Below, piece after piece: positions 63,055 to 63,498 of a stretch of 64,000 nt of DNA (positions are counted from its first letter, which is position 1; every line of letters starts with the position of its first letter). The notes under the pieces are model-generated. The model saw nothing but the letters and a program-made list of their open reading frames with translations. It did not search any database and was not told the DNA's origin. Origin of the DNA: an uncultured Myxococcia bacterium. Its GTDB lineage: Bacteria; Myxococcota_A; UBA9042; PHBI01. Location: assembly GCA_942493285.1 (NCBI GenBank), contig OW818691.1, forward strand, positions 7,126,484-7,190,483, in the 5' to 3' direction. The translations under genes and the position numbers were made by a program.

Positions 63055-63187
63055 ACGATCCTCACAGAGGTGACGTGCACGGACTGATTGGCAATCGCTG
63101 TGCCAGCGACCACCACCAGTTCCTTCAGGCCCTTGAGCGTTTGGGCACCACCAGCGAGTGAACTGGGTGGGTTTTTTCACCCGGGAG

Positions 63188-63203
63188 TGTGCTAATTATC
63201 ACA
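63188..63203. promoter_or_regulatory. CRP/FNR-family type palindrome TGTGC-TAATTA-TCACA in the divergent intergenic region
   Basis: 16-bp near-perfect inverted repeat matching the CRP consensus TGTGA-N6-TCACA at 15/16 positions. It lies in a locally AT-rich patch next to a T6 run (63172-63177), about 135 bp upstream of the cytochrome start codon and about 295 bp upstream of the + strand lipoprotein gene. Confidence 0.35.
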
Positions 63204-63498
63204 GTCGCCAAGCGCCCTTACGAAGCGGGAGGACCGTATCAGCGATTATTGCGAGGCACCAGTCTCGAAGCGCTCTTTATGACTGGCGGACGCGTTGCTG
63301 GGCCCCACCCAGCAGGACTCACTCACTGGGCAAGCCGCCTCTTCAACCTCATCTTCTGGGCATCTAACGACATTCGCACGTCGGTGTGACGCGTGACGAC
63401 GGACCTCCCCGACTGTGAGAGGTTGCGCCCCATCGTTGGCAAGACGGCCCGAAATCCGCGCTCAAACCCAGCCCCCAGCCCCCAGTCCCAAGGATACC

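Follow-up and report, generated by a model that had tools for sequence, protein, structure and literature searches.

Expression control of OmcA/MtrC-type cytochromes is known mainly from Shewanella, where the cAMP receptor protein with its ligand (cAMP-CRP) acts at sigma-70 promoters, and in Shewanella oneidensis its sites at omcA/mtrC are centred at -61.5/-60.5 of these promoters (PMC4417206). In its mode of working, the closest known system to the one described here is a different one, namely BccR/sigma-54 at cbcBA of Geobacter sulfurreducens (bioRxiv 10.1101/2021.04.15.440034). The sigma-54 holoenzyme opens DNA only together with an AAA+ enhancer-binding protein on an upstream enhancer, about 53 such proteins being found in Myxococcus (PMC3162934), and the respective upstream activating sequences (UAS) are located at least 100 bp upstream (PMC2820453). 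The locus of interest lies near the end of a stretch of 64 kb from an uncultured Myxococcia bacterium (contig OW818691.1), the whole of which is called the window in the following, and consists of a decaheme cytochrome gene and a palindrome, TGTGCTAATTATCACA, in the intergenic region upstream of it. Like in Shewanella, the cytochrome belongs to the OmcA/MtrC decaheme family and a TGTGA-type half-site is found upstream, but instead of a sigma-70 promoter with sites at -61.5/-60.5 there is a predicted sigma-54 promoter, and the site is centred at about -116.5.

The palindrome is therefore read as an enhancer that would be bound by an NtrC-type bacterial enhancer-binding protein (bEBP) at the sigma-54 promoter of the cytochrome gene, to which a probability of roughly 55% is assigned. 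The reason is that a sigma-54 promoter needs an enhancer-binding protein and that the inverted repeat (dyad) stands at the usual enhancer distance, -116.5 being within the range of 80-200 bp upstream of a sigma-54 promoter that is expected for bEBP enhancers. Related cytochrome loci point in the same direction, as the cytochrome genes there follow a conserved sigma-54 promoter and a dyad is present upstream of it, often with two-component bEBP genes next to them.

The cytochrome promoter and its upstream palindrome

The argument needs the following features, given with coordinates in the window and strand:

60634..63054, minus strand: gene of the OmcA/MtrC-family decaheme c-type cytochrome, 806 aa (TIGR03507, 504 bits; Pfam MtrC/MtrF domains II/IV and Collagen)
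63059..63063, minus strand: Shine-Dalgarno sequence GAGGA, 4 nt before the ATG
63078..63080 (about 63079), minus strand: predicted transcription start, about 12 nt past the C of the -12 element according to standard sigma-54 geometry, which would give a leader of about 25 nt
63090..63105, minus strand: predicted sigma-54 promoter TGGCAC-AGCGA-TTGC-C
63188..63203, no strand assigned: palindrome TGTGCTAATTATCACA, on the cytochrome strand TGTGATAATTAGCACA, proposed primary enhancer (UAS) dyad

The cytochrome has ten CXXCH motifs and a lipoprotein signal (…YGQIGC). Its start is placed at the ATG at 63054 and not at the GTG at 63180 that would give the longest open reading frame (ORF), because of the lipoprotein signal, the GAGGA ribosome binding site, and the resulting length, which agrees with that of the homologs (806-807 aa). 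Identities of 66-72% are reached by its nearest relatives, to which one fragment with 88% identity is added, and all of them come from uncultured Myxococcota.

Upstream of this start, positions 63105-63091 match the sigma-54 consensus TGGCAC-N5-TTGC exactly, with the GG at -24 and the GC at -12 being spaced by exactly 10 bp. Such an exact match occurs once in the window, compared to 0.07 expected, and this box also has the highest sigma-54 score of the whole window. The C of its -12 element is 63091, 37 nt 5' of the ATG. Neither a sigma-70-like promoter nor a terminator-like site is predicted in the region 62900-63650, no Rfam family was matched in that region, and the predicted leader is short and shows no significant folding. 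On the three latter results, the readings as a terminator or a riboswitch are rejected, and both flanking genes in any case diverge from the intergenic region.

In all four other close homologs (L060, L061, L062 and L129; 66-70% identity), a GG-N10-GC box is found with its -12 C at 38-45 nt before the start codon:

L060 and L129: GGGAACGGCCCTTGCT
L061: AGGAACGCAGATTGCT
L062: GGGCACGTCGATTGCT

This was extended to 20 loci that encode a cytochrome with at least 40% identity and for which upstream DNA is available, using 900-nt upstream zones and a score of at least 5. On the sense strand, 14 boxes were found in 13 of the 20 loci, compared to zero on the antisense strand within these zones (Fisher p = 6e-6), and 80 kb of coding interior contained a single one. 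As boxes occur on the sense strand only, sigma-54 dependence can be regarded as a conserved property of this cytochrome clade, and it is very likely that the cytochrome gene of the window has the predicted sigma-54 promoter.

The palindrome itself had already been pointed out in a first-pass annotation of this DNA and is found exactly at 63188-63203 on the plus strand, as stated there. The distances of about 135 bp to the cytochrome ATG and of about 295 bp to the lipoprotein gene on the opposite strand are likewise right, with 134 bp measured from the near edge of the site and 296 bp to the ATG at 63499. Seven of its eight base pairs form an inverted repeat, and in an extended but imperfect 22-bp form (63185-63206) 9 of 11 pairs match, which makes this dyad the strongest inverted repeat of the 444-bp intergenic region. 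Its centre is 63195.5. A TTTTTT run beside the site was correctly noted as well (63172-63177, 10 bp away), and such runs are indeed uncommon but by no means unique, as the window has six T6/A6 runs, with 2.07 expected. The GC content of the DNA was overestimated (66.6% in the window, and not about 69%), and the surroundings of the palindrome, described as AT-rich, are only mildly so, with 58-60% GC.

As a bare pattern, the palindrome does not go beyond what chance would give in 64 kb: TGTG-N8-CACA is observed once in the window, with 0.58 expected, and the CRP consensus, if up to one mismatch is allowed, twice, with 0.93 expected. The other near-CRP match is TGTGATTCGTTTCACG at 15373-15388 (plus strand), inside a TonB-like gene (14054-15550), and is most likely a chance occurrence. 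What raises the palindrome above chance is its context together with a partial conservation in orthologous promoters. Because no other inverted repeat of the intergenic region is as strong, and because the core of the palindrome is kept in orthologs even where no divergent lipoprotein gene exists, it can be read as the site of a dimeric regulator, and it is quite probable that this putative site functions in the regulation of the cytochrome promoter.

Conservation of the dyad and proposed mechanism

The intergenic regions are too diverged for an alignment with MAFFT, which in an alignment of four sequences misplaced even the sigma-54 box of the window, and for this reason promoter-anchored, alignment-free tests were used. 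Four close upstream regions were compared with regard to the enhancer, those of the window, L060 (from GCA_964269465.1), L061 and L062, with -140..-90 as the enhancer zone. Two other close loci are informative on the promoter at best and not on the enhancer, as the 5' end of L063, the fragment with 88% identity, is cut off and the upstream DNA of L129 comprises no more than 56 nt. A GTG-N8-CACAC element in the same orientation is present in three of the four regions:

window, start at -123: GTGataattagCACAC
L060, start at -138: GTGcactcctgCACAC
L061, start at -119: GTGtggaaaatCACAC

In directed tests, GTG-N8-CACA was found in at least two of the three homolog zones (L060 and L061 carry this core, within -138 to -104) in 20 of 5000 shuffles, and the oriented GTG-N8-CACAC in 2 of 5000. 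CACAC is the sole 5-mer that is common to all four zones, and among 1500 shuffles there were 31 with any common 5-mer. In L060, L061 and L062, unrelated genes on the same strand precede the cytochrome gene, so that there is no divergent gene, and the dyad thus goes with the cytochrome promoter and not with the lipoprotein gene. Since an unbiased enumeration of dyads has no power at 4 or 13 sequences, the conservation is graded as moderate and not as strong.

Other subclades of the cytochrome have other palindromes at similar positions (-101 to -118), and the dyads vary by subclade from GTG..CAC to TGACGG..CCGTCA and CGGATTTGACA. L073 and L077 have the palindrome TGACGGGAT(T/C)CCGTCA (TGACGGGATyCCGTCA) in common, centred at -117.5 and -115.5, respectively, and the DNA between palindrome and promoter is diverged in these two loci. 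CGGATTTGACAGA is common to L068 and L074, and in L074 it is part of a 33-bp inverted repeat with 13-nt arms, TCTGTCATATCCG-N7-CGGATTTGACAGA (L074 1519-1551, centred at about -101), which is directly flanked by the stop codon of an NtrC-type bEBP gene on one side and by the sigma-54 box of the cytochrome gene on the other. According to Pfam, genes with the domain order REC-Sigma54_activat-HTH_8 are located directly upstream of the cytochrome gene in L069 and L074, a 5'-truncated ORF with Sigma54_activat and HTH_8 domains takes this place in L075, and in L068 a gene for a histidine kinase and a receiver-domain gene follow downstream of the cytochrome gene. Differing dyads at one position beside bEBP genes are what co-evolving pairs of activator and enhancer would be expected to look like. 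The bEBP gene of L074 and the adjacent inverted repeat offer themselves as a candidate pair of activator and enhancer.

Two further features of the intergenic region have to be considered at this point:

63165..63182, no strand assigned: second dyad GGGTG-GGTTTTTT-CACCC, with the T6 run inside its N8 spacer
63284..63299, plus strand: weak sigma-54-like box TGGCGGACGCGTTGCT, score 4.5, facing the lipoprotein gene

The second dyad, a weak one, is centred at 63173.5 (about -94.5), which is 22 bp or two helical turns closer to the promoter than the first dyad, and it corresponds to the second GTG-N8-CAC match of the window that a dyad scan gave at -101. It is possibly another activator site, an A-tract bend between enhancer and promoter, or both, and the T-run may best be read as the spacer of this possible site or as a bend-promoting A-tract. 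The interval between enhancer and promoter was also checked by eye for the consensus of IHF, the best candidate having 3 mismatches, and no IHF site is claimed.

If the palindrome is an enhancer, the following mechanism can be proposed. The sigma-54 RNA polymerase would form a closed complex on TGGCAC-N5-TTGC at 63105-63091 of the minus strand, and the dimeric helix-turn-helix (HTH) domain of an NtrC-type bEBP would bind the dyad at about -116.5. This bEBP would be encoded elsewhere in the genome and would probably respond to a signal via a two-component system, and it may also occupy the second GTG-N8-CAC dyad 22 bp nearer to the promoter. The activator would then assemble into an ATPase ring that contacts the polymerase by DNA looping, possibly aided by a bend at the A6/T6 tract, and transcription from the opened promoter would begin near 63079, which leaves about 25 nt to the ATG. 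If this is true, the expression of the cytochrome is gated by a dedicated signal-sensing ATPase and not by global catabolite control, and the combination of dyad and promoter is a signature with which the regulon, the sensor and the environmental cue can be searched for in metagenome-assembled genomes.

The weak TGGCGGACGCGTTGCT box on the other side of the palindrome could be a divergent partner promoter that shares the enhancer, or it is a coincidence. From its -12 C to the palindrome centre the distance is 102.5 bp, compared to 104.5 bp in the case of the cytochrome promoter, which makes for a remarkable symmetry. The reading as a partner promoter must stay tentative because the box, with its score of 4.5, does not rise above background (about 0.12 per kb) and because the lipoprotein has no homologs. 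When six sequences, the window and five homolog loci, were scanned for a sigma-54-like box with the dyad of the palindrome 50-200 nt upstream, the only matches were this weak box and the promoters of the cytochrome genes in the window, L060 and L061, and no regulon partner was found. A more far-reaching idea, which is rather improbable, is that one central enhancer serves two symmetric divergent sigma-54 promoters and is bound by an unlinked, uncharacterised bEBP of a clade-wide, sigma-54-based sensory circuit by which surface decaheme cytochromes with a collagen stalk are turned on in uncultured Myxococcota. Were this the case, extracellular electron transfer in Myxococcota would be under the master control of sigma-54 and not of CRP.

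Weighing the explanations

Several observations speak against the enhancer reading. The window contains no bEBP gene among its ORF translations, so that no cognate activator can be named, and a sigma-54 box is missing in the 580-bp upstream region of L128 (54% identity) as well as in the scanned zones of six further homologs. The comparison of the dyad rests on only four close upstream regions, and in one of these, L062, the half-sites have other spacings (GTGA-N4-GCACAG and GTG-N12-CACAC). The dyad centre shifts, being at -131.5 in L060, and the T/A run is not kept in L060, L061 and L062. The conservation statistics are partly post hoc, and in the unbiased enumeration of trinucleotide dyads, which gave no significant result, three of four sequences sharing one dyad was a common outcome of shuffling. 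Finally, GTG/CAC half-sites suit CRP-family proteins equally well, as the GTG...CAC that is conserved in the homologs comprises the bases that this family reads.

The last point leads to the view of the first-pass annotation, in which the palindrome is a CRP-type site that controls the cytochrome as in Shewanella. A site for a regulatory dimer that acts on the cytochrome gene is indeed likely, but the analogy is unsupported, because the one promoter that can be recognised for the cytochrome gene is a conserved sigma-54 promoter, which needs an AAA+ enhancer-binding protein and not a CRP-type activator. The match to TGTGA-N6-TCACA is near-consensus, with 9 of the 10 specified positions, and the value of 15 out of 16 that had been given for it includes six unspecified bases. 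This consensus is not kept in the homologs, where the best matches have 3 (L060), 2 (L061) and 3 (L062) mismatches of 10 and only GTG...CACA(C) remains. The site lies upstream of the predicted start and hence not in the transcribed leader, a point that the annotation had raised, and it is not at a position of the -41.5/-61.5 type relative to a sigma-70 promoter of the cytochrome gene, the start sites being predicted ones; -116.5 is neither a class I nor a class II position. One may still think of a CRP/FNR-family dimer on TGTGA-N6-GCACA that influences the sigma-54 promoter through a bend or a contact, or that activates a sigma-70 promoter of the divergent lipoprotein gene in class I manner. 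Myxobacteria do have CRP-family regulators, such as MrpC with its CRP-like motif (PMC4320627), and Shewanella CRP activates omcA and mtrC directly (PMC4417206). By sequence reading alone, a GATTAT hexamer at 63244-63249 resembles a -10 element and would place the site near -61 of a plus-strand start at about 63256, which would concern the opposite-strand gene only. Against this stand the lack of a detected sigma-70-like promoter in 62900-63650 and the conservation of the dyad in L060 and L061, which have no divergent gene, so that the dyad is tied to the cytochrome and not to the lipoprotein. The motif of MrpC, TGTYN8RAC, is not matched either, the palindrome having a G at the Y and a C at the R position. 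Among the about 43 ORF translations of the window that were scanned, there is no CRP/FNR-family protein, but this is not decisive because a bEBP is missing there as well and the window is not the whole genome. Altogether, a CRP/FNR-family protein is an unlikely binder, and annotators may take it as a warning that a CRP consensus, even a near-perfect one, gives no evidence for CRP control where the promoter class is the wrong one.

Dyad symmetry and conservation indicate a probable dimeric binder but not its family. The palindrome could therefore also be an operator to which a different dimeric HTH regulator binds, such as a repressor, or an anti-activator in competition with the actual enhancer protein. 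It fits to this idea that bEBPs of M. xanthus have been reported to be dual regulators as well (PMC12754779). Such an operator is nevertheless doubtful, since a sigma-54 promoter must have an enhancer and, besides this dyad, the enhancer zone has no strong inverted repeat and no alternative UAS candidate was found; in addition, other subclades have palindromes at the same position beside bEBP genes. It is similarly hard to believe that the palindrome is functionless and arose by chance in a mildly AT-rich spacer. The chance rate of the bare pattern, the outcome of the unbiased dyad scan and the lacking N8 spacing in L062 would agree with that, but the directed conservation tests (20/5000, 2/5000 and 31/1500 shuffles) do not, and orientation and approximate position relative to the conserved promoter are alike in three loci, and the dyad remains the strongest inverted repeat of its region.

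Surrounding genes and comparison with known systems

On the cytochrome side, a collagen-like Gly-X-Y linker (GEQGEP...) is encoded at 62761-62922 (minus strand), corresponding to residues 45-98 approximately, where it joins the lipid anchor to the heme domains. It may form a trimeric stalk by which the cytochrome is held off the cell surface. A Collagen PF01391 linker is annotated also in many of the top 120 homologs, and the term 'collagen-like' was contained in none of the papers listed by a literature search on multiheme cytochromes/OmcA. When contigs were scanned with the full protein, the result was dominated by this repeat, with one true but distant relative (L011). The cytochrome gene is solitary, in that no MtrA/MtrB-like porin-cytochrome partner is adjacent to it. 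The downstream gene (58993-60444, minus strand) codes for a polytopic membrane protein that has no Pfam match, and the neighbours of the cytochrome gene differ in every close homolog locus.

On the other side of the intergenic region lies one gene:

63499..64000 (cut by the end of the window), plus strand: divergent orphan lipoprotein gene (MRLALACLFTLPLVWAC…), with the lipobox LVWAC and a Pro/Ala-rich linker

Codon-position GC content supports that this is a coding region, as the ORF is the only stop-free frame on the plus strand and has the highest GC content at third codon positions (0.78). The lipoprotein belongs to no Pfam or NCBIfam family, and no homolog was found at E<=1e-4 among 5.8 billion proteins. 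A small palindrome, GTGACGCGTGAC (63386-63397, 8 of 9 pairs), about 107 bp upstream of its ATG may be an operator of this gene, and a C-rich direct repeat, CCCAG CCCCCAG CCCCCAG (about 63467-63486, plus strand), is situated immediately 5' of its ribosome binding site.

Elsewhere in the window, a sigma-54-like box GGGAACGCACGTTGCC (45926-45941, plus strand; score 4.5) resembles the cytochrome promoter of L060. It follows a gene for a PAS-containing hybrid histidine kinase (43884-45809, plus strand) and precedes a urease cluster that begins at 46945 (ureB, ureC, ureF, ureG, UreJ), so that urease may also be under sigma-54 control. Other signalling proteins encoded in the window are a double-FHA protein (41842-43830, plus strand) and a PilS-like histidine kinase (30733-32160, minus strand), and none of these three, the hybrid kinase included, has a sigma-54 activation domain.

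Among the known systems, BccR resembles the proposed one in that a respiratory multiheme cytochrome gene is placed behind a -24/-12 promoter with an activator of the REC-AAA+-HTH type, and in that many genomes have the regulator gene beside it, an arrangement found likewise in L069, in L074 and, with a truncated ORF, in L075. The two differ in their targets, as cbcBA codes for an inner-membrane bc-type complex and not for an outer-surface decaheme lipoprotein of the OmcA/MtrC family, and also in the phylum and in that no regulator gene is adjacent in the window. With NifA, the site of the window shares a literal fit to TGT-N10-ACA and a location over 100 bp upstream of a -24/-12 promoter, and in both cases divergent genes can share an intergenic region. 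It differs from a NifA UAS in that L060 has CGT...ACA and L061 TGT-N8-ACA, the conserved core being GTG-N8-CACAC, and as TGT-N10-ACA is thus not kept in these loci and the window has neither nif genes nor NifA, the reading as a NifA-type site is rejected. At glnAp2 of enteric bacteria, two dyads on the same face of the DNA, about 100-140 bp upstream of the sigma-54 promoter and spaced by about 32 bp, nucleate the NtrC oligomer. Two same-face dyads are present upstream also in the window, but they differ in sequence, the second one is weak, and the spacing is 22 bp and not about 32 bp. A site of MrpC, a protein from the same phylum, would have the outer geometry TGT...ACA in common with the palindrome (PMC4320627), but is rejected as a reading, since TGTG-N8-CACA has a G at Y and a C at R of TGTYN8RAC in both halves.

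A sigma-54 control of OmcA/MtrC-family cytochromes in Myxococcota was found described nowhere in the searched literature, the absence there being no proof. By the comparisons made above, it is more likely that the sigma-54 promoter and its putative enhancer represent a known type of switch in a new place, related in its way of working to BccR and to the general NtrC/NifA enhancer scheme, than that they form an analogue of the CRP system of Shewanella.

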